In this document: positions 1,073 to 42,839 of the stretch, one piece after another
How positions within the stretch are numbered: the first letter of the stretch is position 1
How the letters are laid out: every line of letters begins with the position of its first letter
Made by a program: the position numbers and the translations under genes
The notes under the pieces: model-generated
Seen by the model: the letters and a program-made list of their open reading frames with translations, nothing else
What the model was told of the DNA's origin: nothing
Database searches by the model: none
Virus record (IMG/VR): IMGVR_UViG_3300036815_000121
Span: 1-44,730 of that record
DNA from: a virus
Lineage: Duplodnaviria; Caudoviricetes
DNA length: 44,730 nt
Strand: one strand, 5' to 3'

Positions 1073-1145
1073 CATAGTGTAGTTATGATAAAAGTATAGT
1101 TATTAAATCCGGGGTTCGCCCCATAACCTGAGAGGATTACCACCC

Positions 1146-2036
1146 ATGAACATTTACGAGACCATAACCAATCGCATCATTGATTCGCTTAACGCGGGCG
1201 TCATCCCATGGCGGAAACAATGGAAGGTAAGCGCTAAAAACGGGGGAGTTAATGGCATCCCCTACAACCTTACAAACGGCAAGCGATACCGGGGAATCAA
1301 TGAGATTTCCCTGCTTTGCTCTGGCTACACGTCAAGCGGATGGGCAACCTATAAGCAGGCTCAGGCGTTGGGCTATCAGGTTCGCAAAGGTGAGCGGTCG
1401 TCTCCTGTCGTCTGGTGGAGCTTCCCCGATAGAACGAAGGCGGAGGAGAAAGACCGCGCACCATTCGCCAAGTACTATTCCGTTTTCAATGTGGAGCAAA
1501 TGGAAGGTGTACCGGGGGAGTTACCGCTTGGCGATGATGCGGAACCGTTCGACGCGATAGCCTCCGCTGAAACGGTCGCGAATAACTACATGGAATCGGC
1601 CTCGCATCCTACGCTCGGGTTCGGGGGTTCGGACGCCTATTTCCGACCGTCTACTGATCATGTTCAAATGCCTCCTCGTGAATCTTTCCTTTCCCCCGAA
1701 AATTACTATTCGGTTCTGTTCCATGAGTTCGTACACAGTACCGGGATTAAGTCGCGTCTTCATCGGGAGGAGTTGGCCTCAATGATGCGCTTTGGTGACC
1801 GGGAGTATTCGAAGGAGGAGTTAACGGCGGAGTTCGGAGCGGCTTTTCTCTGCGGGGAAGCTGGAATTTCAAACGATTATCTCTTGGACAATTCGACCGC
1901 ATACATTCAGTCTTGGATTGCCAAACTTCAGAGTGACAAAAACTTTGCGATACAGGCGGCGCAACGTGCGCAAAAAGCGGCCGATTTTATCCTCGGGCGG
2001 TCGTGGAAAGCAGCGGAGGAGACGACCGCAGAGTAG
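1146..2036 (+). CDS. ardC: ArdC-family antirestriction / ssDNA-binding protein
   Basis: IPWRKQW, YRGIN, WATYKQA, VRKGE, VFNVEQ (DUF1738-like); zincin-like HEFVH and YSKEELTAEFGAAFLC. Confidence 0.92.
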   Translation: MNIYETITNRIIDSLNAGVIPWRKQWKVSAKNGGVNGIPYNLTNGKRYRGINEISLLCSGYTSSGWATYKQAQALGYQVRKGERSSPVVWWSFPDRTKAEEKDRAPFAKYYSVFNVEQMEGVPGELPLGDDAEPFDAIASAETVANNYMESASHPTLGFGGSDAYFRPSTDHVQMPPRESFLSPENYYSVLFHEFVHSTGIKSRLHREELASMMRFGDREYSKEELTAEFGAAFLCGEAGISNDYLLDNSTAYIQSWIAKLQSDKNFAIQAAQRAQKAADFILGRSWKAAEETTAE

Positions 2037-2040
2037 CAAA

Positions 2041-2096
2041 GGTCGAAACGGGGGAGGAATCCCCCGTTTCAGCGTGATGCGCTGACTGAAGAGACC
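2041..2096 (+). ncRNA. Type II hammerhead ribozyme
   Basis: GGTC-GAAA-[CGGGGGA GGAA TCCCCCG]-TT-[TCAGCG TGATG CGCTGA]-CTGAAGA-GACC; all core nucleotides and three stems present; predicted cleavage after GUU at 2068. Confidence 0.88.
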
Positions 2097-2149
2097 ATTC
2101 AGCAACATTAACCGGGGGTCTCCCCCATAACCGAAAAGGACTAGCCCAC

Positions 2150-2308
2150 ATGGTTCCAAGAACTGAGTTCGGCGCGATTGAAAAGCTCTGGCGAGTGCGC
2201 TGCTATCTCAACGGTATCGCTTCTTATGATCGGTCTCTCACCTTTGAACAGGTGCGAGGAATCGACGCGGCGATTGATATCACCTATGCTGTGCAACGTT
2301 TGTTTTAA
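2150..2308 (+). CDS. Small hypothetical protein, 52 aa (not in ORF track)
   Basis: MVPRTEFGAIEKLWRV...VQRLF follows leader 3 with AAGGA RBS; its TAA stop begins leader 4. Confidence 0.7.
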   Translation: MVPRTEFGAIEKLWRVRCYLNGIASYDRSLTFEQVRGIDAAIDITYAVQRLF

Positions 2309-2347
2309 CCGGGGTCTCCCCCATAACCTTGAAAGGAATAACTACAT

Positions 2348-2464
2348 ATGTATATCGCGAACATTGCGGGTGTAATTTGCATTTTGTTCCTGATGTTTTT
2401 CTTTCCCCTCGCGCATGGGATTGCTCGTCTGATCTGCTTCCTGATAACGAAGGGGGGCCGCTAA
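2348..2464 (+). CDS. Small hydrophobic membrane peptide, 38 aa (not in ORF track)
   Basis: MYIANIAGVICILFLMFFFPLAHGIARLICFLITKGGR follows leader 4; TAATG coupling to the next gene. Confidence 0.65.
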   Translation: MYIANIAGVICILFLMFFFPLAHGIARLICFLITKGGR

Positions 2465-2784
2465 TGCGTAAACCTGATCTGACTTTCTTGGTGACGGTCT
2501 CCCCCGTTTGTCGGGTGATCGGATGCCAAAAAAAACAGGATGAAGAAAATCGCGGTCTCTTCGGTTTCCATTCCTTTACTACGTGTCCAGACTGTCAGGT
2601 GATCCCTGACGGTTGGCAGATGTGGGGGGAGAATGGCCACATGCAAGCGGCTCCTTCCACGCGTGAGTGGATGGCGCATTGGATCAAAGTTAAGGCGCGG
2701 GAACAGTGGAAGACTAAGGCGGGTCTCCTGATGGGCTACCGCTTCCGGGTCGGTTCCACACTTTATTACCGGGGGGGCCGCTAA
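2464..2784 (+). CDS. Hypothetical protein with Cys/His motifs, 106 aa
   Basis: Start reassigned to the TAATG overlap at 2464; CRVIGC and HSFTTCPDC motifs. Confidence 0.65.
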   Translation: MRKPDLTFLVTVSPVCRVIGCQKKQDEENRGLFGFHSFTTCPDCQVIPDGWQMWGENGHMQAAPSTREWMAHWIKVKAREQWKTKAGLLMGYRFRVGSTLYYRGGR

Positions 2785-3014
2785 TGGAAGAATTTGCGCT
2801 GGTCTCTCCTTCGTTCGAGCGGCGTTCGCGCATTGTCTACGTGCGCGGTCGCGCTATCAAGGCGGTCATCTCTACTCATCCCTGTGACGAACGGTGTACT
2901 TCAGCAAAGGGCAACCTTTGCGAGTGCTCGTGTGGTGGGAAGAATCACGGCGCGGATTATCGCGCTGGCGTCGTCCTGGCTCCAGTCGCAGAGGTTGCGC
3001 GGTCGTTGTTCTAA
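2784..3014 (+). CDS. Cys-rich putative Zn-binding phage protein
   Basis: CDERCTSAKGNLCECSCGGKNHG; TAATG-coupled start. Confidence 0.75.
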   Translation: MEEFALVSPSFERRSRIVYVRGRAIKAVISTHPCDERCTSAKGNLCECSCGGKNHGADYRAGVVLAPVAEVARSLF

Positions 3015-3071: not shown

Positions 3072-3395
3072 ATGGAACGTCAACGGTGTGGTTATCATTC
3101 GTGCATCTGTCAAGGGGTGGCTTTCATCTCGCGTGGTGGTGTCAAGCCAGATTCCGATTACTGCGTCAATGGCAAGCGGGTGCGGGTGCGCGATGATGGC
3201 ACGGTCTACGCTTATGATCTGACGGCGGCGGATGTGGCGGAGTTGACTGCTTACTTCCTGCGTGAGTATGCGCGTTACTGCGCTTGGCACGTCGCCAAAA
3301 AGTACACTCAACCGCAAGTCTACGGGGAGATGGTTCTCCAGCCCTTTAACATGGCGTGGCCGTTGCGCGGCGAGTCGCGCACTGGTACAGTGTAG
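3072..3395 (+). CDS. Hypothetical early protein
   Basis: ATG follows leader 5 with GAGGA RBS. Confidence 0.7.
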   Translation: MERQRCGYHSCICQGVAFISRGGVKPDSDYCVNGKRVRVRDDGTVYAYDLTAADVAELTAYFLREYARYCAWHVAKKYTQPQVYGEMVLQPFNMAWPLRGESRTGTV

Positions 3396-3439
3396 TTATT
3401 CCGGGGGCGCGGCTCCCATAACCTGAGAGGGGTTTTCCA

Positions 3440-3640: not shown

Positions 3641-3694
3641 CTCCAACCGGGGGGCCGCGCTGCGGCTCCCCATAACCTTGAAAGGAATAACTAC

Positions 3695-4072
3695 ATGCAA
3701 AATTTTGTTGGCGTCCGTCCGTTTCGCAACGATATCAGGCCCTATTTCCGTTTCTACTCGGCTCCTCTCGGGGAGGTCGTTGAAGCTGTCGTGCAATTCC
3801 GCAACGACCGCCGTCAAGGGGCTGGCTTTTATCTCTACCTCACTATCAAGACAATCCTGTCTGATGGCGCGGTCCAGTGGATGCCGATGAGTGCGCGGCA
3901 GTCCTATATTCTGCTGTCTCCGGCTGCGCGTTTCGGCTTCCCCAAGCTGCAAGTTTTCGCCATGGCGCTCGACACTAAAATCCCTGAAATTGCAGCGGCG
4001 TGGCGCGATGGCGGGGCGGATGGTATCGAACCCTTTGTTTGTTCGCTGCTCTCTCATTCGCTGGCAATCTAA
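3695..4072 (+). CDS. Hypothetical early protein
   Basis: ATG follows leader 7. Confidence 0.7.
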   Translation: MQNFVGVRPFRNDIRPYFRFYSAPLGEVVEAVVQFRNDRRQGAGFYLYLTIKTILSDGAVQWMPMSARQSYILLSPAARFGFPKLQVFAMALDTKIPEIAAAWRDGGADGIEPFVCSLLSHSLAI

Positions 4073-4130
4073 CTTCAACCGGGGGGCCGTCCTGCGGCTC
4101 CCCCATAACCTTGAAAGGGGAATAACTACA

Positions 4131-4493: not shown

Positions 4494-4495
4494 CT

Positions 4496-7342: not shown

Positions 7343-10300
7343 CTAGGATGTCCAGCAGTCCACGTGGATATCTAGCGTCTCGCCGGGTTGCAGCGGGTTT
7401 TGCAGTTGAATGATTAGGGTGTTGTTGTTGTTCGATGACCACGTTAGGCCGTGCGCGGGGAGGTCTCCGTTGCCGATGACTCCGCAACTGAGGTACTTAA
7501 GGTTACTGCTCTTGTAGTACACGGTGGCAATGCTGGTGGTGGGCGCGGTGGTGCTGGCGGTGAAACTTACGTGTCCATTGATGACGCGGGGGTTGGTAAT
7601 CGATACTCCGGCTACAGGCCGAATCTCGACGCCCGCCACAACAATAACTACAGGTGGGGCGGTGATCGTATAGAGGCCGGAGAAGATGCCGGAGTCGGGC
7701 CGTCCTGCAAGCGTGGCAATCGCCTTAATGGTGGTGGTGGATGGAACAATGATCGGGCTGGTGTAGACGGTGCTTTCTGCGCCACATGCCGGAGTAACGC
7801 TGTTGATGGTGTAACAAATGGTGGCTCCGGTGGTCTGGGTGAACAGGGCTATGGTGGTGGTTGACGGAAAGGTTCCGGGCATGGGTTGCGCGGTCGGGGT
7901 GGCGACGGGGGGTTGGGGAGCATTGATGGTGTAGAGGCCGGAGAAGATGGCGGAGTCGGTGTATCCGGCAAGGGTGGCGATGGCCTTAATGGTGGTGGTA
8001 GTGGCTACGCTGAAAGAGCCGCTGTAGGTGGTGCTTCCAGACCCGCAGTTGTTACCCGTCGTCGTCGGGGTGCTGCCGTTGGTGGTGTAGCAGATTTTCG
8101 CGCCGGAGGTCGTAGTCGAGAGGGCTACGGATGTGGCGGCGGTGAAGGTTCCCGGTGGCGGCGCTCCGGTCGGGGTGGCGGCGGTCGGCGGCGGGGCGCT
8201 GTTGATAGTGTAGAGGCCGGAGAAGATGGCGGAGTCGGTATATCCGGCAAGGGTGGCGATGGCCTTGATGGTGGTGGTGGCGGGTACGCTGAATGACCCG
8301 CTGTAGGTGGTGCTTCCAGACCCGCAGTTGTTGGCGCTCGTCGTCGGGGTGGTGCCGTTGGTGGTGTAGCAGATTTTCGCCCCGGAGGTCGTGGTCGAGA
8401 GTGCTACTGATGTGGCGGCGGTGAAGGTTCCCGGGGGCGGCGCTCCGGTCGGGGTGGCGGCGGTCGGCGGCGGGGGAATATTGATGGTGTAGAGGCCGGA
8501 GAAAATTGCGGAGTCGGTGTATCCGGCAAGCGTGGCAATGGCCTTAATGGTGGTGGTGGCGGGTACGCTGAAGGACCCGCTGTAGGTGGTGCTTCCAGAC
8601 CCGCAGTTGTTCGCTGATGTGGTCGGGGTGCTGCCGTTGGTCGTGTAGCAGATTTTCGCTCCGGTGGTCGTGGTCGAGAGTGCTACTGATGTGGCGGCGG
8701 TGAAGGTTCCCGGTGGCGGCGCTCCGGTCGGGGTGGCGGCGGTCGGCGGCGGCGGGGCGCTGCCATACTCCAATCCGCCCATGCTCGGCGGAACATGGTA
8801 GGCGTTGCCCGCGTTGTCGGTGGTGATGGCGGGCGACAACACGACTCCGGTGTACTTGGCGGGGCTTCCGGTGGTGAGGTTCCAGCCGTAGTTGTCGAAC
8901 ATGGCCTCGCCGGTGTAGGTCGATCCGCCTACAAGCAGCGGGTCTACGCAAAGGTCGCCCGCGCCTCCGGCTCCGCAGTTGCCTCCCTTAAGGTGGAAAT
9001 GGCTGTTGTGGTTCTCGATGATCTGGGAGGGGGCCTGATCGTGGCTTGTCGCTAGCAGGTTGGGATAGGTGCCGCTGTTCCAGTTGGGATTGGAGAAGCC
9101 CAAGAAGATGTTGTTTTGCATGGTGAGGGTCGGCTGCGGCAAGAGACAATGCCCTGCCCCGTCGTTGTCCCAGCATCCCCACAACATAAACTCGTTGTTA
9201 TAGCCAATGATCGTATTGTGCGCAATCAGGCTGGTCCCGCCTCGAAGGTTTTGAAACGATAAGGTGTCGCCCGCGGCGCGGCAAAAGTCGCCTAAGTGAG
9301 TGCGCGGGTCGGGTTCATCTCCTACCTGCTCTGATAAGCGGTGGCAGTTGCCGATGACTAGGTTGGTGGTAAAAACGGTGGTGGTCACGCCTCCCCATTT
9401 GAACTGCTGGCCTGAGTTGCCATAGGCGATGCTGTTGGTGATGGTGACGTTGGCGGGGCCTCCTGAGTTGCCGTCGATATGTCCAACGTCGGGGCCGTCC
9501 TGCGTACAGTAGCGGAAGGTCGTGCGGTCGATCTGGACGGTTAGGGGAGTGTCCGGGGTGCCGATACAATCGGCTACCGTTCCATGCGCGTCATCGAAGG
9601 CTAGGAGCGTGGGAACGTTATGAACGTCGGGAAATTCCTCTATCGCTCCCGCCCATTCAATGATGGAGTTGCGCATCGAGAGGGTGCCGTTTAGGGAGTG
9701 GGTTCCGTTGCCGTCGTCCAGGTCCCATCCGGTCTGTCCGGTGTAGGCGATGCGGACTCGATTAAGATCCACCAGCCCGCCGATTGGTCCTTGTATTCCG
9801 CGATTGGTCACGCGATGAATGTTCACGTCTTGCAGGTAGATATTGGCGCTGGTGTTGTTGGTGACCATGCCCGCTTGCATGTTGTCGTCATAGGGGTAGT
9901 TATTCGCGCAGTAGTGGGCCGCTGGCGGGTCTCCCGGTAGGGGTCCATCGCCCGTTGTTCTACACGACGAGTACCCCGTAACCTCGAAGCATTCAATCAC
10001 AACATCATGCGACCCGCGAACGTCGAACATCTGCGACATATCGTAGCTGCCATGCAGGATTTGCTTTGCTCCGGGTGCGGTACAGGCGGCGTAGTTAGCT
10101 CCTCTAAACGTTGTCGGGTCTGAGGGTGTTCCAGAAGGAATTGCCGGGGGCGTACAGCCGATAGCTCCATTTCCACCAGAGCACCACGGCTCGCCGGAGG
10201 CGGTTGGCTGACTAAAGCCAACCTGACATCCGGGGCCGTCGCTGGCGGCGAGGCAGCTTTCGACGGTGATAATGTCGCTCCCGGCAATGACCCATGCGTG

Positions 10301-12709: not shown

Positions 12710-13260
12710 CACTGCCACCATTCCGGTATCAGGTTCATTTGTGAGCGTGAGTCGTGTTTCTCAAGGGGCAGATAGTGAACCGTGTCGCCGGGGCCTTGGT
12801 CATACGGTGCCATCCTCGTATGGGTGCCACAACGGGGGCCTTTGATGGCTACCATGACGGCCTCTTGCCATAGCTGCCGGGGAAGGTTTTTCATCTGGCC
12901 GTCGTATTCGCGGAGGATGGCAAGATACCGCTGCTGGTACGCCTTGAAGCCTGCTTCGGTGCCGTTCGGCGGCTCGATCTTGAAGTGTTCGCAGAACACG
13001 TCCGAAAGTACCCAACGGGTATCGCTGGCTAACATGATGGCTTGTGCGAACAGCTTCCGCGCTGCTTCGGCGGCGGCTCTCATCATCGCGTATTTTTCCT
13101 GTTCGTCTCTCCAGCCAGCGGGTATAGCAAAGACTTCATCCTCCGGGCCGATGAGCATCACCTTGGGAATGAAGGCTTCTTCCGCGCTGTACTTGTGTCG
13201 GGCGCGGTCATCTTTCGCGATGAGCAACATTTTGTTTAGCAGTGTAGTTACTTCTATCAT
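12709..13260 (-). CDS. Hypothetical protein
   Basis: ATGA-coupled 183-aa ORF. Confidence 0.7.
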   Translation of the reverse strand: MIEVTTLLNKMLLIAKDDRARHKYSAEEAFIPKVMLIGPEDEVFAIPAGWRDEQEKYAMMRAAAEAARKLFAQAIMLASDTRWVLSDVFCEHFKIEPPNGTEAGFKAYQQRYLAILREYDGQMKNLPRQLWQEAVMVAIKGPRCGTHTRMAPYDQGPGDTVHYLPLEKHDSRSQMNLIPEWWQ

Positions 13261-19766: not shown

Positions 19767-20425
19767 TATGAGTACGTTCCTGCGCTGATCGCGTACAGTG
19801 ATCCGTCATAATCGGCAACAAAGGTTTGAATGGTGAAGGCGTTCACACCCTGCCTAATCAGGGTCTGGTTGTGTACTCCGTTCGGCCACGTGAACTCCCA
19901 AAATCCGATTTCGTCTTGAACGATGATGAAGGTGTAGAGGTTGCCCGGAACCATGCCGGTGATGGTGGGGTGGGCTACATCGCTGTGAAGCACGGTCTTA
20001 AGCGTGGTGTAGCTGCTGCCGTCGAAAACCATAGTGTCTGAGGCTGGCAGCAACAGAAGCTCGTTGACGATGAGCGGCGGAAGCGGCATCAGCGGCAACG
20101 CGGGGTCGAAGGGCGGCGTGTCGCCTAGGTTGTAAGTGTTGCTACCAAGGAACACATAGGCATTGACTTGGACTACATCTCCGTTGTCGTCCTTCACGGT
20201 CACGGTGTAATAGGTTCCTGCGGGCTGAATCTGATCATTGCCGGTCAGGGTGACGCTGAAGTTCCCGTTTTCGTCCGCATCAATTTCAAGGGTGGTAGCT
20301 CGGGCTAGCAGTTGCGTGGTAGCGCGGGGAAGCTGCCCGCCGTATCCGCAGAGCGCAATAACTACACTGCCGCTCTCGGCCTCGTTGTTGAGAATGGTTG
20401 CGAGTTTTCCGATGACGGTTGCCAT
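19766..20425 (-). CDS. Putative tail-associated protein
   Basis: Ig-like N-terminus (ADENGNFSVTL..ND.I.PAGTYYTV) plus the shared C-terminal domain. Confidence 0.7.
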   Translation of the reverse strand: MATVIGKLATILNNEAESGSVVIALCGYGGQLPRATTQLLARATTLEIDADENGNFSVTLTGNDQIQPAGTYYTVTVKDDNGDVVQVNAYVFLGSNTYNLGDTPPFDPALPLMPLPPLIVNELLLLPASDTMVFDGSSYTTLKTVLHSDVAHPTITGMVPGNLYTFIIVQDEIGFWEFTWPNGVHNQTLIRQGVNAFTIQTFVADYDGSLYAISAGTYS

Positions 20426-20432: not shown

Positions 20433-20864
20433 TCACGCGAAGAAAGTTAGCGGGCCTACGGTAGCGATGCGCGGATGTCTGTCTATCTGATCGGTGACGT
20501 TGGCGCAAAACCAGTCGCGCCTCGGATGGCTGAGGTCGGCGTAGTACAGCGCGGTCAGGGTTCCTCGGTCGTCGGTCACGTTTACGTTGCTGTCGTCGGC
20601 GGTGCCAAGATACACATCGTCAATCAAGGTGAGCATCCGGCGAAAGGTGAGGTCTTTCGGGTCTACCGGCCCTAAGTTCTCCCACACCGTTCCGGTGTAG
20701 TTATGCGCGGTGTCCAGTACACTCTTCCATTCTCCCCATCCCGCATTGACGCGATTGGCGATCACCTGGGCGACTGCCAACATGCAGTCGGTTCCGCCAT
20801 AGTGGTACGCCTCGTGGACGGCATACTCTACCAGTCGCGCCTTGATGTAGTTTTCGTAGGTCAT
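20433..20864 (-). CDS. SleB-like cell wall hydrolase (candidate lysin)
   Basis: HEA......MLAVAQVIANRV, ALYY and C-terminal VGPLTFF resemble Hydrolase_2; start reassigned to MTYENY. Confidence 0.65.
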   Translation of the reverse strand: MTYENYIKARLVEYAVHEAYHYGGTDCMLAVAQVIANRVNAGWGEWKSVLDTAHNYTGTVWENLGPVDPKDLTFRRMLTLIDDVYLGTADDSNVNVTDDRGTLTALYYADLSHPRRDWFCANVTDQIDRHPRIATVGPLTFFA

Positions 20865-21568
20865 CGCGGCTGTCCCTTGGTCCTGCGAAAGTCGGCTAGC
20901 TGTTCTAGGTAGAGTTCGCTGGCGGCGTTCTCGATCACTGGTCCGAAGGCGCGGTCTACTTCCGCCTCCGTGACAACCTCTTCCTGAATCATCCGTAACA
21001 GGGCGGTGCGCCATCCGCGATACCGTTCATACTTGGGAACGTCGAACTGATCGAACTGCATCAGGCTCCACTCCGGCCCCTTGGGATATTGCAGATAGGT
21101 GATGTACTGCGCGGTGCGTCTGCCGTTGCGCCACACCCATCCGGTAATCCCGATGCGGTCTTTGATAACTACATCGTGTAACCAGAACCGGGCGGTAGAG
21201 CGGGTGCGCTGTACCGGGATGAGGATGCCGGTCTTGGGGTCGTTGTCCCACACCCAATCAATCGCGGCCTCGATGCTGCAATCCACTCCGGCGTCTTGCA
21301 GCTTTTGAAAGACGGCATGGGGATGGAGGATGTTGACGAGACGCATCTCTTCATTCTCCCGGCCCATCCATCGCTCCTGCCCCTGCCAGCGGTATTGATC
21401 GCGGGCGCGATAGTTTGCCTCGAACAACTTTTGTTCCTCTTCCATGAGTTCGGCGCTGCTGGTGTCGGTGTAGGGTAGCGGCTCTGCGACTACCGGAGTC
21501 GGAAGCTCCTCGTCATAACTACACTCCACCCGCTTAAGATTGGATCGGATTTCCCCGGCTTCTGGCAT
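20861..21568 (-). CDS. Hypothetical protein
   Basis: 235-aa ORF with GGGAG RBS. Confidence 0.75.
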   Translation of the reverse strand: MPEAGEIRSNLKRVECSYDEELPTPVVAEPLPYTDTSSAELMEEEQKLFEANYRARDQYRWQGQERWMGRENEEMRLVNILHPHAVFQKLQDAGVDCSIEAAIDWVWDNDPKTGILIPVQRTRSTARFWLHDVVIKDRIGITGWVWRNGRRTAQYITYLQYPKGPEWSLMQFDQFDVPKYERYRGWRTALLRMIQEEVVTEAEVDRAFGPVIENAASELYLEQLADFRRTKGQPR

Positions 21569-30521: not shown

Positions 30522-31508
30522 TTACCTCCATCCGAAGCGGTACGGGTATGGCCCCTGATCCTGCACGAAGCCGGGAGAGGCAATGGACTGGTCGGGATAG
30601 AAGCCTTTGGCTTCGTCCTCGCGGTCGCCTTGGCGGGCGGCGGCGGCGACGGATTCCAGCCAAGCCATCTTCATCCGGTCGAAACGGGCAAGCACGGCGG
30701 GGTTGGAGGAGTAGCGATGGGTGTAGGCAATGAAGCCGTCGATGAACCATTTGGCGTACTCGTCGGGGATGGGGTCAACGAACTGTCCAAGGTTGATGAA
30801 GCGCGGCGGCTGCTTCATCTGCGCGAAGATGCGCATCAGCCAAACGTTTCCTCCCGATGGTGGGCGGGGAAGAAAACGGAAACCTTGCGCGTTGGGGTCG
30901 GCCACGGTCCATTCGCAGGTTCCGTCAATAACTACACTGCCGGGTGCGGTGCCGGAGGCTACGACCGGCGCGATGGCTCCGGTGGTGCCGTAGGCGGTCA
31001 AGACGAGAATGTTGCCCGCTGCGTCGTTGATGTTGGTCCACTTGTTGTTGTTGCTGGTCGCCTGTCCTACGGGATTGGTGTAGACGACTCCCGGCCCCGG
31101 CCATCTTCCGTACTCCAACTGATGGTTGGAATACCAGCACACTTCGCCGGGGAAGCCGCCAATCGAGTTGTCAATCTCGATGTCGCGGACAGCAACCACC
31201 TTCCATGACGGCGGCGGGACTTGGGTGTTGTTGATGTCGATGCGGACGGCGTTCTCCAGCCATCCGATGTTGTTGACGGTGAGCGAGGCGTAGTCCTGTT
31301 GCAGCGGGGTCAGCACGAAGGCGGGAATCTTGGCCCGGTTCCACTTCCAAGGGAAGCGCACACTCAACATCTCTCCCATCACCGTATTGGCGATGGAGAG
31401 GGCGGGTTGCGCGGCATAACCTCCGGTGGATTTCAAAACCGGGGTGAGGTCGCCCATGACGGCAACCTCATCCACGATATCCATCAGCTTTATGTTGCTG
31501 TTCCCCAT
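30522..31508 (-). CDS. Head-tail adaptor-like protein (paralog)
   Basis: ALSIAN...FPWKWNR, DPIPDEY; synteny. Confidence 0.55.
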   Translation of the reverse strand: MGNSNIKLMDIVDEVAVMGDLTPVLKSTGGYAAQPALSIANTVMGEMLSVRFPWKWNRAKIPAFVLTPLQQDYASLTVNNIGWLENAVRIDINNTQVPPPSWKVVAVRDIEIDNSIGGFPGEVCWYSNHQLEYGRWPGPGVVYTNPVGQATSNNNKWTNINDAAGNILVLTAYGTTGAIAPVVASGTAPGSVVIDGTCEWTVADPNAQGFRFLPRPPSGGNVWLMRIFAQMKQPPRFINLGQFVDPIPDEYAKWFIDGFIAYTHRYSSNPAVLARFDRMKMAWLESVAAAARQGDREDEAKGFYPDQSIASPGFVQDQGPYPYRFGWR

Positions 31509-31526
31509 CGCGCACTCCTGTAGTTA

Positions 31527-31865
31527 TTACCCTGCCGCTTGCCCCTGTTTGAAGTCCGGGGTGTTGGGACTGCTCTTGGGGGTCGCTTGCTGCTGCTTCA
31601 ATGCGGCCTCGGCTCGTTTCTTGCGCTCGGCGGGGTCTTGCTGCTTCTGCGCGGTGATGGCGCTCTCCCGCTGTTCGTCGGGGTCGGGCGGGTTCTGCGC
31701 GTTGTCGAATGCGGCCTGCGCTTTTTTGTTCTGCTCTACCTGCATGGCGTCGAGTTCATCGTTGAGAGCTTCGTTCTTCTCCGCTTCTTCAAGGAGTTGC
31801 TTGCGGCGGTCGCCTATAGCAACGGGTTGCCCCTCTTTCCGGTCTTCTACTTTGGCTGTAGTCAT
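31527..31865 (-). CDS. Hypothetical charged protein
   Basis: 112-aa ORF in virion operon. Confidence 0.6.
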   Translation of the reverse strand: MTTAKVEDRKEGQPVAIGDRRKQLLEEAEKNEALNDELDAMQVEQNKKAQAAFDNAQNPPDPDEQRESAITAQKQQDPAERKKRAEAALKQQQATPKSSPNTPDFKQGQAAG

Positions 31866-31899: not shown

Positions 31900-32397
31900 T
31901 TAGGCGGCGGGGGCTGCGGGAACCGTGATCGGCGGCGTGGGCGGCGGTCCGATGACGAAGAGTTGAGTACCGCTCATTTCGTTATCGGTGGGCAGGTTGA
32001 GCCACAACACATACTCGTCATAGAGCCGCTTGTATTCGGCCTTCTGCTGCGCGGTGGCGGTCTTCGCGTTCAATGCGGGGTTGGGCGGCTCGACGAGCTT
32101 GAAACATCGCTGGCAGATGATGATGATGGGGCCGTGGCAAAGCTGGTGCTTGACGACGGCAAAGTTATGGTCGTTGCCGCGCAACAGCATCTCCACGCCC
32201 TTGCCGCCCTTCTTGTGCCAACACGCATCCTGCGATGCCTTCCTCATCGCGTTGTCGCGGGCAATGTCGCGTTCGCGGCTGGCGGCGCGTTGGATACGGG
32301 CCTCTTTGTTGCGGCGCATTTCGTAGACCCGTTCCTGTGTCTCCTCCAGTTGAAGTTGCTCCAACTGCGCCGTGATTGAGGCTTTGTCGAGTGGCAT
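31900..32397 (-). CDS. Hypothetical protein, coiled coil plus Cys/His motifs
   Basis: Start reassigned to MPLDK after GGAGG; CWHKKGG, ICQRC. Confidence 0.7.
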   Translation of the reverse strand: MPLDKASITAQLEQLQLEETQERVYEMRRNKEARIQRAASRERDIARDNAMRKASQDACWHKKGGKGVEMLLRGNDHNFAVVKHQLCHGPIIIICQRCFKLVEPPNPALNAKTATAQQKAEYKRLYDEYVLWLNLPTDNEMSGTQLFVIGPPPTPPITVPAAPAA

Positions 32398-32515
32398 AAC
32401 TACATCCCTCCTTCGGGGTTGGGTGGAGCGGGGGAAAGAGAGAGACCTTGGGAGACCCTTTCCTCTCCCCCCTTTTGAGTTGCGTGGCTCTAGGACGCAA
32501 CCCCGCTCCAGCTTT

Positions 32516-33661
32516 TTAGGTGATGGCGCTGGCCGCGTCGGTGTAGCGGATGCGTTGAACCGGGTCGGGGGGGAGGGTCGCGGTATACATGGTGTTGTAC
32601 GACGCGAAGCCTCCAATCATCCGTGACGGGTCGTATCCGCTCGGCTCCGTCAATCGACGGACCCAAACGTTCAAGTTTCTCCAGTCGCCATCCCCAATTT
32701 GGGTATTTTCCTTGGCTCCGAAAGACACGCCAATGACTCCATCGCGCCCGATGACATAGGTGCGAAGTTTGACCGGCGCTGATCCGGTTTGTTTAACCAG
32801 CGTGGATTGATGGAAGCTGGCTCCGCCCCAATCAATCACGGTTACGTTGTCGCCATCGGGGGCTGGGAGTTCGCGCAACTTCTCCTGACCCTCCGCCGTT
32901 CTTTTCAAAACGTCGGTGATGCCGTTGGGTTGGGTGCTGATGAGGATGTCGCCAACGATGAGCGGATGAATCACTCCGGTAAAGCGCCCGTTATCGAAGG
33001 GCAGGGCATTGACGGCGGTCAACGACTGCACCATCGAAGTGATGTCCTGCGCGATAAGGTTGGTGCCTAGCGGCGTGTGTGCCACCAGCGCATCGACTAC
33101 GCTGGCTCCGTCGGCGGTGTTCTGGATGATGAGGTTGATAACCTGCGCCAAGCGGTAGGCCATCTGCACACCCAACGCTTCAAGGGCGGGGTCGATGGCG
33201 GTCTGCAAAGCGTAGGTCGAGATGTTGGCGTAGTCGGCATAGTTGCCGATGGTGGACGTGTTCTGTACCACCGAAACGGTTAGGCCGGTGCCAATTGTTC
33301 CCTCCGGTGCCTGGGTGATCGGCGGCGCGGGAAGGTTCTGATACATGTAGAGCACGAGCTTATTGCCCGCATTCTCGTCAATGGTTCGCCGTGCGGTGCA
33401 ACGCACCCATGGGGTCTCCGCCTTCAGGTTCTCTACGAAAACCTTGTCGAAGGAAGTCACGACCGACTGGGGCAGGTTGGTGGTCAAGTTGGATGCTGGC
33501 GAGACGCCAACGCCCAACGCTCCGTGGACGCGATACGCGCCTACGGCATACGTCCAGACAAAGAGTTGACCGCCAACGGCGGCGGCAAACTCAATGACTG
33601 GAATAACTACTTTCTGGCAAAACTGCCTGCCGCGCTCGGCGGCTTCGGATGTGCTTCGCAT
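32516..33661 (-). CDS. Major capsid protein (N4-gp56-like, HK97 fold)
   Basis: FDKVFVENLK, PEGT, IGNYADY...S, LAQVIN, GVIHP, YDPSRMIG; follows the scaffold; start MRST after GAGGGG. Confidence 0.8.
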   Translation of the reverse strand: MRSTSEAAERGRQFCQKVVIPVIEFAAAVGGQLFVWTYAVGAYRVHGALGVGVSPASNLTTNLPQSVVTSFDKVFVENLKAETPWVRCTARRTIDENAGNKLVLYMYQNLPAPPITQAPEGTIGTGLTVSVVQNTSTIGNYADYANISTYALQTAIDPALEALGVQMAYRLAQVINLIIQNTADGASVVDALVAHTPLGTNLIAQDITSMVQSLTAVNALPFDNGRFTGVIHPLIVGDILISTQPNGITDVLKRTAEGQEKLRELPAPDGDNVTVIDWGGASFHQSTLVKQTGSAPVKLRTYVIGRDGVIGVSFGAKENTQIGDGDWRNLNVWVRRLTEPSGYDPSRMIGGFASYNTMYTATLPPDPVQRIRYTDAASAIT

Positions 33662-33684: not shown

Positions 33685-34494
33685 TCACGCGCCTAATGCA
33701 TCGACCGCTTTTCTGAAGGCCGGGTCTCGCAATCTCTCCTGATACTCCGCCCTCGACATGCGTTCGATGTCTGCGCGTGTGAGCTTCTTCGGCGTAGGCG
33801 GCGGGGGTGCGGTAGCGGATGCGTCACTGCTCCTGATCCCAGTCGATACGCTGCGTGGTCTGCTGGTACTTGTAGGAGAGGGAGGATTAGGCTCCGGCTG
33901 TCCGTTCGGTTTGGGTCCATCGGTTGGCTCGGTCGGCCATGCGATGAGTTCGCCTTGGTCGTGGAGGGTTTGATAAACCAGTGCAAGATTATTCCGTGTC
34001 AGGTCTAGCTGGTTGTCTTTCAATGCGGCAAAAAGTTTGTCGCGGTTCTGCTGTACTGGGTAGTAATCGGGGGTGGCTTGGACGAAGGCGGTAGCTTCGT
34101 CCTTGTAATACTGGTCGCGCTGCTCGTCGGTCATGTTGGCGAGGCGTGTAGTTATTTCACGCGGGGGGGCGCCCTGCGCGTGAGTTACGATTTCCGTCAC
34201 GGCATCCACTACTTTGTCCGGGTCGGTAATTTCCGTCGATAGGCGTAGCTTGTCGGCGGAGGTTAGTTCTTTCGTTTCGGCTTTGAAGGGTTGGGGAATC
34301 CTCGCACGGTCGGGCCGTCGTAGACGGCTGATTTCGCGATTAGCGTTAGCTTGCGAGTGCAATAGCGCGTCCGCCACTTCCTTGTAGGTCTTGCCCTTAA
34401 AAGTGGAGATTCGCGCTCCGACTGCATTTTCGATGATGGCGATGTAATCGCCGTTCTCATCGGGTTCCCCGTTATTGAGCCATTCGTATTTCAT
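33685..34494 (-). CDS. Capsid scaffolding protein
   Basis: Directly upstream of the capsid; Pro-rich linker and C-terminal LTRADIERMSRAEY. Confidence 0.65.
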   Translation of the reverse strand: MKYEWLNNGEPDENGDYIAIIENAVGARISTFKGKTYKEVADALLHSQANANREISRLRRPDRARIPQPFKAETKELTSADKLRLSTEITDPDKVVDAVTEIVTHAQGAPPREITTRLANMTDEQRDQYYKDEATAFVQATPDYYPVQQNRDKLFAALKDNQLDLTRNNLALVYQTLHDQGELIAWPTEPTDGPKPNGQPEPNPPSPTSTSRPRSVSTGIRSSDASATAPPPPTPKKLTRADIERMSRAEYQERLRDPAFRKAVDALGA

Positions 34495-35500: not shown

Positions 35501-37621
35501 CTAGCTTCCTCCTGAGGTGCCGAAAAACTGGCTGGCTTGCATCTGGCGCTCGTCGGCAGTGCGCTCGGCAAAGCTGGCGGCGCGTTGGAGCGGGGATTCG
35601 ACAAGGGTTTTGTGGGTGGTGTCTACGCTCTTGCTGGCAATTCGTCCGGCAATTTTTTTGTCTTCCAGTTCCATATCATTCTGGTGCTTCTGCTGTAGCT
35701 GGGCGGAGTCGGCCTGAGCTTTGATCGCGGCGGGATTTTGCGCGGCCATGGTCTGCATTTCCTGTTGCGTCATCGGGACCACAAGGTCAGCGCGGTTCTT
35801 CCATTCGCTCATATCCAGCACCATCTTTACGAGTTCCATCACGTTGACTTTGTAGCCAACCTGCGAGAGTTGCTGTATGAGCGCCTGATTGCCGAACACT
35901 TCCAACAGGAAGGGAAGGGCTTGCGCCATGCGGTTCCGCGCTGCCAGTTTTGTACCTGCCAGTGTTTCAAATTTGACGTTGGTCGCCATGAAGTCGCCAA
36001 AGTCGGTTACGAGGTCTTGGCTGCGCTCGCCAATGCGGTCGCGGATTTCCTGTATCGGCATCCGCTCTTTCACCATCTGAAAAAGGAAGTTGAGGAAGGG
36101 CAGAAAAACCCCGTCGATGAAACGTTCGACGGGGCTTTGCAGACGACCGGAGGAAGCGGCTTGGAGCATTCCCGCGCCTGTACCGGAATGCCCCACACTG
36201 CTGCCGCGACCGGGGAGGACTCCTTGCACCGTGGCTTGATCGGCTCCGGTCGCGCCTTCGCTCGATCCTACCACCGCTTGGATCGCTCTCCAGCCGTCCG
36301 GGGGAACCTGCGGTTGCGGCACAAGCGACACGGCTTTGGTGGCGTCGTTGCCGTCCACCATACGGATACCGCCTAGCCGTCGCCGCTGGTCTTGGGTCGG
36401 CACGTTGGCCCCTCGCGCAATCGCGTACTCCGGCTGTACCGCGAAGGCGAGGATATCGAGGATGGCGTTTATCATCCCCTGCTCCACCCGTTGATCGGCT
36501 CCCGAGATGCGGCCTACCCCCATGCCGTAGCCGCTGTTGTCGATGTCCCAGTAGTTGGCGCTGAGGTAGGGCTTTTCCGGCATCTTGTGTTTGGCGTTGC
36601 GGATGACGCACTTCTGTTGCAACACCGTTCGCACTTGGGTCTTGTCCCACCATTCCAATACCTGCATCGGTTTCAAGAGCGGGTCTGCTGTCCAGTTGGT
36701 GTCCTGGCGGGCGGCGTGGTGGACGCTGGTGTTGACCGTCATCGCCTCTTCGGTGCCGTCGATGGGTTCGGTCTGCTCCTCGTCCGACATAAAGATGTGG
36801 CGTAGGATTTCGTCGCTCGGGATGTCGTAGTCGGGGTTCTCGCGGAGCTTGGTCAGGTCATCGTAGTTGAGGTAGTTGCGGTGGACGATAAACCGCGCCT
36901 TCCAAATCTGGTTGGGGTTCTTCCATTTTGGATCAATGAAGACTTCGCCTAGTTCGCACTTCTCGAAGGTGGGGCGGTTGCGGGTTACCTCTTCTTCGAC
37001 GGCTTCAAACTCGTCGGACTCCTTGGTGAACACCGTCATGGGCTGGCCTAGCGGCATCGGCACTTGCGGCGGGGCCTTCTTTCTCCGGTAGTGGGTTTCC
37101 AGTTTAGTCTCGGTCTCCCATCCCACCTTGTAGATGACGGTGCCGGAGTTCACCATCCCCTGTATGCCATAACTACACTCTTGCTTGAAGTTGATTTCGT
37201 CTAGCAGTTCGGAGACTAGATCGGTCCATGCCCTTGCCGTGTCCTGATGGGTGGCGGGGCGGGGCCGTACCATAAACGGGGTGGTGTCGGAAAAAATCGC
37301 CCCTGTGATGGCGGGGGCGAGAGAGTTGGTTTGCTTGGCCACGGTGAAGCGGGAGACGTTCGACCGGGTAACAGTGGAGCCTTCAAACACGCTCATGGTG
37401 CGGGGCGATTGATACAGGATGTCGCTCTCCGTCCATTGCAGCGGCCAACGGCGGTCATTCTGCCATGCGCTGGCCCGTTCGTAGTCCTGTACCACGATGC
37501 TGATCACGGCGGCGTCGGTGTAGCGCGGCGGAATTTTCGGGTCGGAAGAAGTCGTCACATCGCCCGGCAACACCGGGGCGTGTGGGTTGTTCTCCACATC
37601 CAAGACGGATGACGCGGCCAT
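35501..37621 (-). CDS. Portal protein (podovirus type)
   Basis: 706 aa downstream of TerL; GTVIYKVGW, VFIDP, GYGMG, Q-rich C-terminal helix. Confidence 0.8.
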   Translation of the reverse strand: MAASSVLDVENNPHAPVLPGDVTTSSDPKIPPRYTDAAVISIVVQDYERASAWQNDRRWPLQWTESDILYQSPRTMSVFEGSTVTRSNVSRFTVAKQTNSLAPAITGAIFSDTTPFMVRPRPATHQDTARAWTDLVSELLDEINFKQECSYGIQGMVNSGTVIYKVGWETETKLETHYRRKKAPPQVPMPLGQPMTVFTKESDEFEAVEEEVTRNRPTFEKCELGEVFIDPKWKNPNQIWKARFIVHRNYLNYDDLTKLRENPDYDIPSDEILRHIFMSDEEQTEPIDGTEEAMTVNTSVHHAARQDTNWTADPLLKPMQVLEWWDKTQVRTVLQQKCVIRNAKHKMPEKPYLSANYWDIDNSGYGMGVGRISGADQRVEQGMINAILDILAFAVQPEYAIARGANVPTQDQRRRLGGIRMVDGNDATKAVSLVPQPQVPPDGWRAIQAVVGSSEGATGADQATVQGVLPGRGSSVGHSGTGAGMLQAASSGRLQSPVERFIDGVFLPFLNFLFQMVKERMPIQEIRDRIGERSQDLVTDFGDFMATNVKFETLAGTKLAARNRMAQALPFLLEVFGNQALIQQLSQVGYKVNVMELVKMVLDMSEWKNRADLVVPMTQQEMQTMAAQNPAAIKAQADSAQLQQKHQNDMELEDKKIAGRIASKSVDTTHKTLVESPLQRAASFAERTADERQMQASQFFGTSGGS

Positions 37622-38162: not shown

Positions 38163-39774
38163 GGTTGTACTTGTCGCGTTCGCGCATCATCTCCCATGCG
38201 AGGTCTTCCTCGGCCATCTCCCCGGCTGCGATGCTCACCGGAAGGTGATCGGCCACGCGGGAGACCACATCGGGTAAGCCGTCGTCGGGGGTCATGCCAT
38301 ATTGCACAAAGCCTTCGATGAGCGGCTTGGTCTTGAGGCTGTTCGAAAAGAACAGGCGGGAGGATGCCAGCAACGGCTCCAGATGCCGGATGCGGGTGTC
38401 TCGCTCTCCGGCGTCGGCCTGAAACTCCGTCCACGTAATGGCGATGTTCCAACCCGTTGTCAAACTGTAGTTATTGATTGCCGGTTGCATCAACCGCGCT
38501 CCCGGCGATTCCTCGATGCTGATGCTGTGCAGGCCGTTGCGTCGGGCGGTGTCGTGGATGATTCGGGCGAGTGCCGATGGCTTGTAGTGGCCCTGCAAAG
38601 TCTCCGCGATATACATGCGGTTGCGGTGCAGAATGCCTACCGCGCCGGAGGTCGTTAGCCAGTTGATGCTCCGGCAAGGAACCCGAAAATGTAAGAAGCG
38701 TTGTCCCTCCATCGGGAGGTCGCTTTCGTCCACCATCGCTGCCAGCATTTGCGCCTCGGTGAACACCAGTTCGGCGGCTCCGTAGCTGTCCAGCATGTAT
38801 TGGCTCATAAAAAATTCATAGTCGGCTTCGTACTCCTCACGCAAAAAATCGTAGCTGAGGATGGCGGGGAACAGCAGTTCCATCTCTTCCGGGGCAGGGA
38901 AGCCGTTGGGGTCCAGCCGTTCGCCGTTCAACAACCGCAACGCGGGTTTGAAGACGCGGTGATAACTCCCCGGCCTCGCCGTCAAAACCTCATCGGAGAA
39001 GGTGTCGCCCAAGCCGTAGGGCGTCCCGATCTTGATTTCGAAGCCGGTCGGTTTGAGGATTTTGCGGGTGAGCTTATACGCCTTGGTGACGGCTACCCGG
39101 CCTTCGAACTTGCGCGAATTGCGGTTGGTGTTGATGTCGTCGTAGATCAACACGTCGGGGTGCCATCCGGTAATGTTGGAGTCGATGGAGTTGGCCCATA
39201 TCATCGGCTCGATAATCTTGGGGTCGTGCTGGCGGAGCGGACAAGTGAATCGTCCTGGCTCCTTCGGCATCTTGGACACGCACAGTTCGGGAAAGAGGGC
39301 TTGAAACAGGGTGGGCGGGCGGTGCGAGGGATGAAAGAAAAAGCTGGCTACCTGATCCACGAAGGCGAAGGCTAGGTCTTTGCCTCCGCTCATGATCAGG
39401 ATGGCGATGGTCATGTAGTAATGCAGGATGAGTTGTACGCAGTAGGCGTTATCAAGGGTGGTCTTGTAGGTGTTGCGCGGGTAGAGTAGGGTGCGCCTGC
39501 GCTTCTTGCCGATGTGCAGTTCCGCAACCGTCTGGGAGGAGTCTATCTCGGGGAAAAACGCGATGGCCTCATGGTGAACGGTTTCGTCAATCAGGCAGTA
39601 ACCCAACACGTAGCTGAGGGCGAGAAGGTTGCTCTTGCAGCATCGCCGCCCGTCCGCATTCACATCGCCATCGTGCAAGACGATATCGGTAAGCTCGGTG
39701 CGCCATGCTTGGTTGTCGCTCCGCTCGGCGGCGGGGTCGCGCAATCGACGCCAATCAAAATGTCTCGGCTTCAC
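38035..39774 (-). CDS. terL: Terminase large subunit
   Basis: LLYPRNTYKTT Walker A variant, ITGWHPDVLIYDD Walker B, IGTPY motif, C-terminal RNase H-like region. Confidence 0.85.
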   Translation of the reverse strand: MKPRHFDWRRLRDPAAERSDNQAWRTELTDIVLHDGDVNADGRRCCKSNLLALSYVLGYCLIDETVHHEAIAFFPEIDSSQTVAELHIGKKRRRTLLYPRNTYKTTLDNAYCVQLILHYYMTIAILIMSGGKDLAFAFVDQVASFFFHPSHRPPTLFQALFPELCVSKMPKEPGRFTCPLRQHDPKIIEPMIWANSIDSNITGWHPDVLIYDDINTNRNSRKFEGRVAVTKAYKLTRKILKPTGFEIKIGTPYGLGDTFSDEVLTARPGSYHRVFKPALRLLNGERLDPNGFPAPEEMELLFPAILSYDFLREEYEADYEFFMSQYMLDSYGAAELVFTEAQMLAAMVDESDLPMEGQRFLHFRVPCRSINWLTTSGAVGILHRNRMYIAETLQGHYKPSALARIIHDTARRNGLHSISIEESPGARLMQPAINNYSLTTGWNIAITWTEFQADAGERDTRIRHLEPLLASSRLFFSNSLKTKPLIEGFVQYGMTPDDGLPDVVSRVADHLPVSIAAGEMAEEDLAWEMMRERDKYNLIYGRGVYSPPEPEPEEEESLSSFEEHPLTAQGLEVCIPGLE

Positions 39775-41154: not shown

Positions 41155-41573
41155 TTGTTGTCCTTTCGGGTTACGGTGTAAACGGTGCGGCTGTTGCCTC
41201 GGTCGTTGCGTATGACGTCGCAGACGCAATGCGCGTAGGCGTCGGAGTGAATGACTCCGGCATCGGTTAGAGCATCAAGCCCAACCTTGTGAAAGTTGTC
41301 TTCGTCGCCCTTCTGACCACGGCCAAGTACGACGACCATATGAACGTCATAGGCGGTTTTTTTCTTCTTGGCATCGGGCGGGGCGACGGTGCGGCCTCGG
41401 GCGAAGATGGCGACGGCCTCTTTGTATGCCTTGGCCTCGGGGGTGACCTTGAATCCCCGGCGCGGGTAGCCGTTGCGGTCGCGGTAGACGCATGGACTCT
41501 TGTAGTGATTCCCCGATGGCGGAACAAGGTAGGGAACCGTGAAAGTGACTACATCCGCGATTTCGCTTGACAT
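41151..41573 (-). CDS. rusA: RusA-like Holliday junction resolvase
   Basis: PPSGNHY, EAKAYK, GDEDNFHKVGLDALTDAGVIHSD. Confidence 0.85.
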   Translation of the reverse strand: MSSEIADVVTFTVPYLVPPSGNHYKSPCVYRDRNGYPRRGFKVTPEAKAYKEAVAIFARGRTVAPPDAKKKKTAYDVHMVVVLGRGQKGDEDNFHKVGLDALTDAGVIHSDAYAHCVCDVIRNDRGNSRTVYTVTRKDNK

Positions 41574-41609
41574 AAAGTGACTATACTTTGTAGAAGTGAG
41601 TCATGGCAA
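41542..41609. promoter_or_regulatory. Overlapping divergent promoters with candidate operator repeats
   Basis: + strand TTGACA at 41567; - strand TTGCCA-18 nt-TATAGT ending 6 nt before the rusA ATG; AAAGTGACTA at 41542 and 41574. Confidence 0.55.
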
Positions 41610-41860
41610 TGAAAAAAAATGCAAAGGAAATCAAGATTAATAGCTATCAAAAGGGGGTCGGCGGACGGTCGCGGCGGCGTACCGGCGTGATCGTCCAAAG
41701 CATCCGCCTTTTGGTGGTCGATAACAACAAGTTGCACGACGCGGCGAAGGTGGAAGGAATCTCCTTCAACGGTTGGGCATCCCGCATTCTCATCCGCGAG
41801 GCCGCAAAGGTTCTCAAGCGCAATGAGGCGGCAAAACAACAAAAGAAAGTGACGGAATAA
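41603..41860 (+). CDS. Ribbon-helix-helix regulator (candidate repressor)
   Basis: SIRL...LHDAAKVEGISFNGWASRIL; first gene of the divergent operon. Confidence 0.7.
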   Translation: MAMKKNAKEIKINSYQKGVGGRSRRRTGVIVQSIRLLVVDNNKLHDAAKVEGISFNGWASRILIREAAKVLKRNEAAKQQKKVTE

Positions 41861-41861
41861 C

Positions 41862-42074
41862 TTGGCGAAAACAAGCGTACCGGCTAGGGACACTCGACCT
41901 TCAAACACCAACAACGCGGCTCTCCATCCGCAACCGAAAGACCCCCGGATGGAGCTTTTTTACCTGCTTGGCGTCCTGCGCGGCTCCGGCGTCGAAAACT
42001 CGGTTCGTATCGCAGAACTGGTCAATGAGCTATTGATTCCTGCGGCTCCGGCTGCGGAAAGTGCAGGTGAGTGA
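41862..42074 (+). CDS. Hypothetical protein
   Basis: Fills the operon gap; start uncertain. Confidence 0.45.
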   Translation: MAKTSVPARDTRPSNTNNAALHPQPKDPRMELFYLLGVLRGSGVENSVRIAELVNELLIPAAPAAESAGE

Positions 42075-42262
42075 TGGCGGAGGATCGCCTAGACCGCATT
42101 GAAGCTGTCTTGGAGCAGACAACCGTGCTGGTGAACCGTTTGGTTCGCTACGCTATGTTGATCGCTCGGATTCACGAAGAGGAAATTAGCAGTCTTAAAA
42201 AGCGGGTCTCGCTACTGGAAGCGGGGGAGGAAGGGACAAATGGCGACGTTGTTACGCGCTGA
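42071..42262 (+). CDS. Small coiled-coil protein
   Basis: RLDRIEAVLEQ heptads. Confidence 0.6.
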   Translation: MMAEDRLDRIEAVLEQTTVLVNRLVRYAMLIARIHEEEISSLKKRVSLLEAGEEGTNGDVVTR

Positions 42263-42539
42263 TGGATCGGCGGAGACCTTGCAACCGTCGAACGGAGTTC
42301 ACTGGAATCTGGAGGAGCTTCAAACTTTGGTCGGCGGTTACATCGAGGTCGCGAGGACGACCGATGGCAAATACTTGGTGCTCGATGAGGAAGGGAAGTT
42401 GAAACGGAAGCCGCTGAACGTGGCGGCAACCCGCATCTACCAGCACGGTCGGCGGGACGTGATTGTGGGCGATGCGGTTGTCGTAGACACTAAACTAGAG
42501 ATGAACGGACCGGATGAGGAGGAGGAGCCAGAGCAGTGA
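42240..42539 (+). CDS. DUF3846-like protein
   Basis: LEELQTLVGGYIEV, DEEGKL..KPLNVAAT, IVGDAVV. Confidence 0.8.
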   Translation: MATLLRADGSAETLQPSNGVHWNLEELQTLVGGYIEVARTTDGKYLVLDEEGKLKRKPLNVAATRIYQHGRRDVIVGDAVVVDTKLEMNGPDEEEEPEQ

Positions 42540-42832
42540 AGAAGTGGAATCCTTTCATAAAGGATGGGTACACCGGGCGGATGCCACCAAGCGTCTGCCC
42601 GGTTTGTCTTTATGAGCTAAATGGCGTTACCAACATGACCTCGCGTGATGAGCCAGCAGTGGGTGATTTCACCATTTGCATCAACTGTCGTTCGGTCCTA
42701 CGCTTCGGGTTGGGAATGACTCTGGAGAAGAGTTCCCTGTTGGATGTCCCTGTTTCCGTGCGCTTTAATTTTGCGAAACTGCTACGGGTGATGGAGACCA
42801 TGCCAGCACGACCAAAAAAGAAAGGGAAATAA
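42536..42832 (+). CDS. CxxC zinc-ribbon protein
   Basis: CPVC and CINC; GGAG RBS. Confidence 0.65.
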   Translation: MKKWNPFIKDGYTGRMPPSVCPVCLYELNGVTNMTSRDEPAVGDFTICINCRSVLRFGLGMTLEKSSLLDVPVSVRFNFAKLLRVMETMPARPKKKGK

Positions 42833-42839
42833 CTACATT

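Follow-up and report, generated by a model that had tools for sequence, protein, structure and literature searches.

The 44,730-bp phage record IMGVR_UViG_3300036815_000121 (the window, which is the entire record; 57.6% GC) carries a dispersed 9-mer, ATAACTACA, in 19 exact copies. The enrichment of this word is real and under selection. The word is most likely the operator network of a ribbon-helix-helix (RHH) protein encoded at position 41603 by the gene referred to here as rhh. It is probably the site at which a dimer of this protein represses early and late promoters as well as its own, and the copies inside genes may serve to tighten silencing.

Abundance, conservation and orientation of the word

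Twelve of the exact copies are on the + strand and seven on the - strand (425 per Mb), all at the positions listed in a preliminary description of the window; none exists besides these. An order-3 Markov model predicts 0.24 copies. There are 11 copies wholly within genes (5 sense, 6 antisense), whereas 2000 resamplings of synonymous codons average 0.46 and never exceed 4; the enrichment proposed earlier survives both nulls. Copies described as lying between the ribosome-binding site (RBS) and ATG at 2338, 3687, 4122 and 42829, an overlap with the start at 32397, and 17 bp common to 20356 and 30926 are all present. The listed near-matches are less uniform: those at 1095, 13243, 22687, 29019 and 33603 carry one mismatch, those at 4490 and 41545 carry two, that at 41577 carries three, and the one given as 9896 is a one-mismatch copy located at 9895. 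A proposed likeness to BlaI/CopY sites, whose full palindrome consensus is TACAnnTGTA, does not hold, as 1 of 95 sites in six genomes completes it. The sole added preference in the flanking bases is an A or C before the word, which gives the wider form [A/C]RTAACTRYA. The TAACTA/TAGTTA core is, from its sequence, a TARYTA dyad, and the pattern RTARCTRCA occurs 21 times in the window. Exact copies are unevenly spaced, with gaps that reach 12.7 kb; the 12.7-kb stretch without exact sites spans the gene for a 1069-aa protein and other variable modules.

Relatives were collected through capsid and portal scans, which gave 46, 57, 54 and 80 overlapping loci. Six genomes (G001, G002, G004, G006, G013 and G015) carry 12-21 copies of ATAACTACA each, and the variant RTARCTRCA occurs at 19 places in G014 and 29 in G003. 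The motif-bearing records form one fully supported clade, 13 rows of a 43-row tree of portal, terminase and capsid. Exact copies number 95 in the 260 kb of the six clade genomes versus 1 in the 422 kb of ten other family members. Beyond the clade, ATGACNNCAT occurs 14 times in G008 and ATGACNTCA 13 times in G011 (1.5 expected each). Mismatch-tolerant searches of G005, G007, G009, G010, G012, G016-G019, G022 and G028-G033 gave no convincing dispersed word; the pattern ATARCNNCAT in G010 (13 copies versus 2.0 expected) was picked after looking and hence is not counted. A host-wide signal such as an uptake sequence or Chi was rejected. The order to which the putative host bin belongs was represented by 36 genomes (41 less 5 unpublished ones), from which the true host may differ; their 144.5 Mb contain 290 copies, and none of them exceeds 4.2 per Mb.

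Three relatives with related RHH strands (G009, G029 and G030) have 2-4 copies each, all at rhh and early promoters. By copy number and placement, these represent an unexpanded state of the system and the clade an expanded state with 12-29 sites. Tandem ATAACT-period arrays of a variant site are found at the early promoter in G029 (1136-1156) and G030 (879-903; window orientation), and long palindromes take their place in G005, G007 and G028.

Across most of the clade, the sites in the terminase gene, the portal gene and 20861-21568 are fixed; almost no outgroup has them, and outgroups often carry other residues at these places. When the window is compared with 13 relatives (which are not independent), codons for unchanged residues within sites are identical in 145 of 173 cases (84%), compared with 63% for the gene and a codon-specific background of 51%; the synonymous-site conservation that had been suggested as a check is therefore present. 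Eight genomes contain 52 distinct in-gene positions when these are grouped in bins of three residues, and one pair probably represents a single site; 36 of the positions are private to one genome, and 20 are sense and 32 antisense (p=0.13). By these positions, in-gene sites turn over between genomes. Internal promoters at the in-gene sites were considered and rejected. With an approximate sigma-70 matrix, only 1 of 50 in-gene sites scores above the 95th percentile of the word planted randomly in genes, versus 10 of the 45 remaining sites (p=3e-4); sites in genes that lack a homolog in the window are counted among these 45.

Fifteen sites adjoin start codons, 10 forward and 5 backward. That the sites between RBS and ATG face both ways points to double-stranded DNA and not mRNA as the target, and an operator acting at the RNA level was rejected. 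Sites also stand alone: a second site within 30 bp is found for 5 of 95 (9% at random), and tandem subsites occur only at the early promoters of G029 and G030.

The RHH protein as candidate binder

The 41603 protein has a conserved basic N-arm, a strand (V31-Q-S-I-R35) and helices at 38-51 and 55-84 in a monomer model. Its profile matches are weak (1y9b, E 0.013; NikA, 0.035; Arc, 0.39), and the Atlas lists RHH look-alikes of it. In a homodimer model, residues 31-35 are paired antiparallel with a score of 0.54 versus 0.00 for the best control; at least 95% of contacts agree between runs, and pLDDT is 65-67. Of 30 solved dimers, 20 attain the mark set for this score, as does 1 of 23 single chains; the model may owe its score to a resemblance to RHH dimers of solved structure. 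The protein was found in 23 of 27 records, the misses being mostly fragments, and its alignment proved too diverse to serve for scanning loci.

The preliminary description favored this protein since two variants of the word lie in its promoter. The two degenerate copies are there, at 41545 and 41577, in a region with a TTGACA at 41567 on the + strand and TTGCCA-18-TATAGT (41609-41580) on the - strand. The rhh gene was located in 37 records of at least 14 kb. A strong dispersed word occurs in 14 of them, and 11 of these carry their own word within 60 bp before rhh (10 of 12 after two identical pairs are merged); 1-3% of equal windows score as high. The words at these promoters include different ones, CGTAGCTGCA in G003, ATGACTTCA in G008 and ATGACGTCA in G011, and G008 and G011 have a different RHH strand. 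Lineage-specific words also tend to occur at the early promoter after the clamp-loader gene, after the capsid gene and before repA, and G003, G008 and G011 hold their own words in the intergenic region of the 32396 site. The rhh and early promoters match at 10.5 of 12 within a genome versus 9.2 of 12 across RHH types. This comparative evidence backs the earlier suggestion of a genome-wide network of protein-binding sites with the 41603 protein as binder.

From the enrichment, conservation, strand indifference and promoter placement of the word, and from its co-occurrence with the rhh gene, we infer binding, repression and a role for the in-gene sites. A predicted RHH dimer would bind the double-stranded, TARYTA-centred word and repress repA, the early ardC promoters, its own promoter and the rusA-late promoter that diverges from it; additional sites within genes would strengthen silencing over the full length of the genome. 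On entry, a genome free of the protein would fire its early promoters; the RHH protein would then accumulate and shut them, as the repressors Reg576 and F55 do. The basic circuit of the family would consist of 2-4 sites at rhh and early promoters, to which the clade may have added sites where the cost was low, in RBS-ATG spacers and at wobble positions. The in-gene sites would most likely act as roadblocks in either orientation and, as a sink, would set the level of free RHH protein per genome copy.

Several observations weigh against this mechanism. Of the 37 tested records, 23 lack a strong dispersed word, G017 has the RHH strand type of G008 yet only 2 copies, and the relatives are non-independent samples. 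Among the 14 records, G002, the window and G015, a twin of the window, are the three misses; in the window the rhh promoter holds only two- and three-mismatch copies (top 3.4% of windows by matrix), and in G002 it has no detectable copy. The match between rhh and early promoters is weak outside the IVQSIR-type group (p=0.07, n=7), and part of the co-variation of word and RHH is inheritance because the rhh gene and its promoter are linked. The sites are single, whereas Reg576 needs paired sites in the passages that describe it (PMC6294495). Plain promoter repression does not explain the in-gene role, because 1 of 50 in-gene sites is at a predicted promoter. Finally, with integrase, resolvase and ParA not found in any of 19 records, a silent prophage state is not established.

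Known repressor networks and alternative readings

Reg576 is an RHH repressor of the Bacillus plasmid p576 whose short word occurs 18 times, including 5 occurrences within coding regions (passages of PMC6294495). Like Reg576 as described there, the 41603 protein would be a small RHH repressor that acts on its own promoter and on ardC-type establishment genes, allowing transient expression after entry. Reg576 depends on heptamers in pairs, and the promoter sites that it uses fall within a 7.9-kb stretch of a conjugative plasmid (same passages). The phage sites, by contrast, are single 9-10-mers over the whole genome; the majority are in virion genes and subject to synonymous constraint. F55 of the Sulfolobus virus SSV1 offers a similar analogy: this viral RHH dimer shuts down its own promoter along with early ones and maintains a carrier state. 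The passages on F55 (PMC5569661) place this archaeal protein on tandem repeats at four promoters only and do not describe genome-wide in-gene sites. As for the features of an RHH repressor, the phage protein is predicted to form a dimer, its own-promoter site is found in the 11 of 14 records (degenerate in the window), and an early promoter site is present.

Mycobacteriophage L5 stoperators, a class of sites that blocks transcription elongation, had been offered as the known analogue. The likeness to cluster A stoperators and L5 gp71, as presented in passages of PMC9283540 and PMC6550527, is that there are 20-30 sites dispersed over the genome, some at promoters and most not, and that the word varies between lineages along with the repressor. 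Those stoperators are 13-14 bp long, oriented with transcription and placed in short intergenic gaps, and their repressor is a 183-aa monomer with helix-turn-helix (HTH) and Stoperator domains. The phage sites, in contrast, are 9-10 bp long, occur in both orientations, lie inside genes in 11 of 19 cases and would be bound by a predicted RHH dimer; no protein of the HTH plus Stoperator-domain family was found among 63 window proteins scanned. The analogy therefore fails by site orientation, in-gene placement and repressor fold, and L5-type stoperators were rejected, the in-gene sites being single, in either orientation and not at promoters. P1 C1 is similar in having about 22 dispersed operators for one repressor, with a replication gene included; in the passages on it (PMC8546580) the operators are 17 bp long, the repressor is a different one with Coi and Lxc modulators, and the phage is a proven plasmid prophage. 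Because the stoperator tests and the paired-site test of Reg576 fail, the system is filed under neither. By analogy, its promoter action would resemble that of Reg576 and F55 and its spread that of P1 C1 and L5 stoperators.

No account of the motif of this phage family, and no tailed-phage RHH protein with genome-wide in-gene sites, was found in the main texts of open-licence PMC and bioRxiv literature. The surprise lies in orientation-free sites that invade virion genes and in a visible step from 2-4 to 12-29 sites. The small state (2-4 promoter sites) and the expanded one, the latter with separate words in three or more lineages, are both seen within a single family, which therefore provides a natural series for the origin of stoperator-like networks and for the question of what orientation-free in-gene sites do. 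A ready specificity code is offered by natural RHH variants that go with different words, and a testable repressor-operator pair becomes available for an uncultured soil phage family, probably of Acidobacteriota.

A bolder reading, which is rather unlikely, is that a two-promoter RHH switch became a genome-coating system, selection planting single sites wherever they are cheap since RHH dimers per genome matter. If so, portal and terminase residues would have changed to accommodate sites, and the coat would count genome copies by titration and release late genes once replication outruns the RHH protein. Alternatively, the coat would tether an unintegrated genome that lacks integrase, ParA and cI.

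The chief rival, which is unlikely, is that the RHH protein binds but the role of the many sites is mainly physical: the protein would coat the genome for copy counting, compaction or tethering to the host nucleoid via the basic arm, in place of a partition system. The turnover and mixed orientation of the 52 in-gene positions, their location away from promoters, the conserved basic N-arm and the failure to find ParA are in keeping with such a role, and dispersed KorB sites of RK2 may aid segregation (passages of PMC3597684). However, sister lineages need just 2-4 promoter sites, the spacing of exact copies is uneven, some in-gene sites are fixed in place clade-wide, and plasmid life is unproven, with HTH_36 initiators replacing RepA_C in relatives.

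Another binder, for which the rhh promoter would be just one target among several, is distinctly unlikely. The candidates are a host regulator and the products of 15452 (a second RHH), 34897 and 11553 (a C2H2-finger protein), the last three named in the preliminary description. The weak copies in the rhh promoter of the window would fit such a binder, and lineages could differ in host; candidate hosts, however, hold far fewer copies per Mb than the window, as given above. The word is not tracked across relatives by 15452, whose strand is kept in the motif-less G017 and G012 and changed in the motif-bearing G001, G003 and G014, or by 34897, which is absent from the same three motif-bearing genomes, and both were rejected. 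The presence of 11553 is compatible with binding, as tblastn finds it in all 7 whole motif-clade relatives tested, but it is poorly conserved (30-58% identical within the clade) and was not found by tblastn in G011, which has its own dispersed word.

That only promoter copies matter, those in genes being a neutral outcome of amino-acid content, descent and leader duplication, is very improbable: the early leaders are near-copies of one another and account for about 3 sites, and N-Y and V-V-I motifs are able to yield the word, but the codon null, the synonymous identity, the near absence of the word from the same genes in relatives outside the clade and the other residues of outgroups at several sites all speak against it. 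The proposed repression by the 41603 RHH dimer remains the preferred reading.

The phage, its host and features of the window

The window is a podovirus-like soil phage that encodes an SU10-type portal, terminase, capsid, RusA, RepA_C, a clamp loader, ArdC and an SMC-like ATPase. The closest isolated phage is Tunturiibacter phage Tunturi 3 (portal 37%; passages of PMC11924767), and a bin of Candidatus Sulfotelmatobacter includes a short contig with a 72% portal match. Because of these two matches, the host is likely a member of the Acidobacteriota. Isolated phages gave no nucleotide matches and no matches to the 41603 protein. No prophage was found in GTDB genomes by capsid, and portal alignment gave only two short bin contigs. 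CheckV completeness of family records is 42-61%. Nineteen family records span 41-45 kb and several have identical left and right ends, which suggests that they are near-whole genomes. No tyrosine integrase, resolvase or ParA (the partition ATPase, AAA_31) was found in these 19 records, and HTH_3 was found in one, which is not the window; the family shows no cI-type repressor. The initiator slot (window 42840-43811) holds a RepA_C or an HTH_36 protein depending on the relative, and in G011 the HTH_36 protein is beside a DnaC-like ATPase. Because HTH_36 initiators replace RepA_C in relatives (G001, G005, G008, G011 and G031; 61 of 115 candidate open reading frames (ORFs) scanned), a phage-plasmid lifestyle is possible but not proven. 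The ardC slot (window 1146-2036) similarly holds ArdC or DUF932.

Sites and associated features in window coordinates
Coordinates	Strand	Feature	Remarks
1078..1086	-	exact site, predicted early promoter between clamp-loader gene and ardC	site conserved here clade-wide
1095..1103	-	variant ATAACTATA, early promoter shared with 1078 site	form retained by unexpanded sister lineages
1582..1590	+	exact site within ardC (N-N-Y-M)	matching position in G004, G006
2338..2346	+	exact site between RBS and ATG 2348 of 38-codon early ORF	
3391..3399	-	exact site overlapping -10 of predicted early promoter TTGCGC-17-TACAGT	
3687..3695	+	exact site between RBS and ATG 3695	
4122..4130	+	exact site between RBS and ATG 4131 (DUF6876)	
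7644..7652	+	exact site within gene for 1069-aa protein, antisense	
13243..13251	-	variant GTAACTACA, first codons of 12709-13260	
20358..20366	+	exact site within 19766-20425, antisense (S-V-V-I)	
20696..20704	-	exact site within 20433-20864, sense	
21165..21173	+	exact site within 20861-21568 (D-V-V-I)	kept in 6/7 clade genomes
21515..21523	+	exact site within 20861-21568 (C-S-Y-D)	exact in 6/7 clade genomes, variant in 1
22687..22695	+	variant GTAACTACA within 21582-23882	
24652..24660	-	exact site within 23879-25882, sense	
30928..30936	+	exact site within 30522-31508, antisense	
31519..31527	-	exact site at junction, immediately upstream of RBS of 30522-31508	
32396..32404	+	exact site, reversed, between RBS and ATG 32397	
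33603..33611	+	1-mismatch site near start of major capsid gene	exact in G001, G013
34147..34155	-	exact site within 33685-34494 (I-T-T-R)	
37169..37177	+	exact site within portal gene (C-S-Y-G)	exact in 20/21 clade sequences
38466..38474	-	exact site within large terminase gene (N-N-Y-S)	exact in 18/20 clade sequences
41545..41609	.	region of diverging rhh and rusA-late promoters; degenerate sites GTGACTACA (41545), GTGACTATA (41577)	
41603..41860	+	predicted RHH-fold protein, 85 aa	likely binder
42829..42837	+	exact site between RBS and ATG 42840 of repA (RepA_C)	G003: own variant, matching place

The early genes at 1105-4130 each have a repeated leader, consisting of a GC stem-loop followed by CCCATAACC and the RBS. 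CCCATAACC has 8 copies in the window, 7 in G006 and 0-2 in other relatives, and early genes are exchanged between strains as cassettes. Four 23-bp direct repeats, iteron-like, follow repA at 43827-43977, and a 34-nt inverted repeat lies at 43782-43885.

Several records (the left ends of G001 and G006) open at a hairpin with a perfect stem of 19-23 bp and a 14-nt loop. The start of the window (1-40) falls inside this left-end hairpin, and its right end resembles the absent arm. The hairpin is possibly a terminus, a packaging site or an assembly break of a circular genome; contigs aligned to the window gave no joint that fixes topology. Near the left end, 127-318 contains tandem repeats with a 22-bp period of the GGTCACTCTGCGAGGGGTTCGC type, and relatives have other GC-rich repeats there.

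On the + strand, 5530-6656 encodes a twin-arginine translocation (TAT)-signal protein and two small membrane-like proteins; two of these are shared only with G001 among 17 relatives, and by this distribution the genes are recent cargo. In the 1069-aa protein (7343-10552), a region resembling a beta-helix is accompanied by four Fn3-associated repeats (three 279-bp repeats in the DNA). The SbcC/SMC-like ATPase (453 aa; 13855-15216) is present in all near-whole relatives tested.

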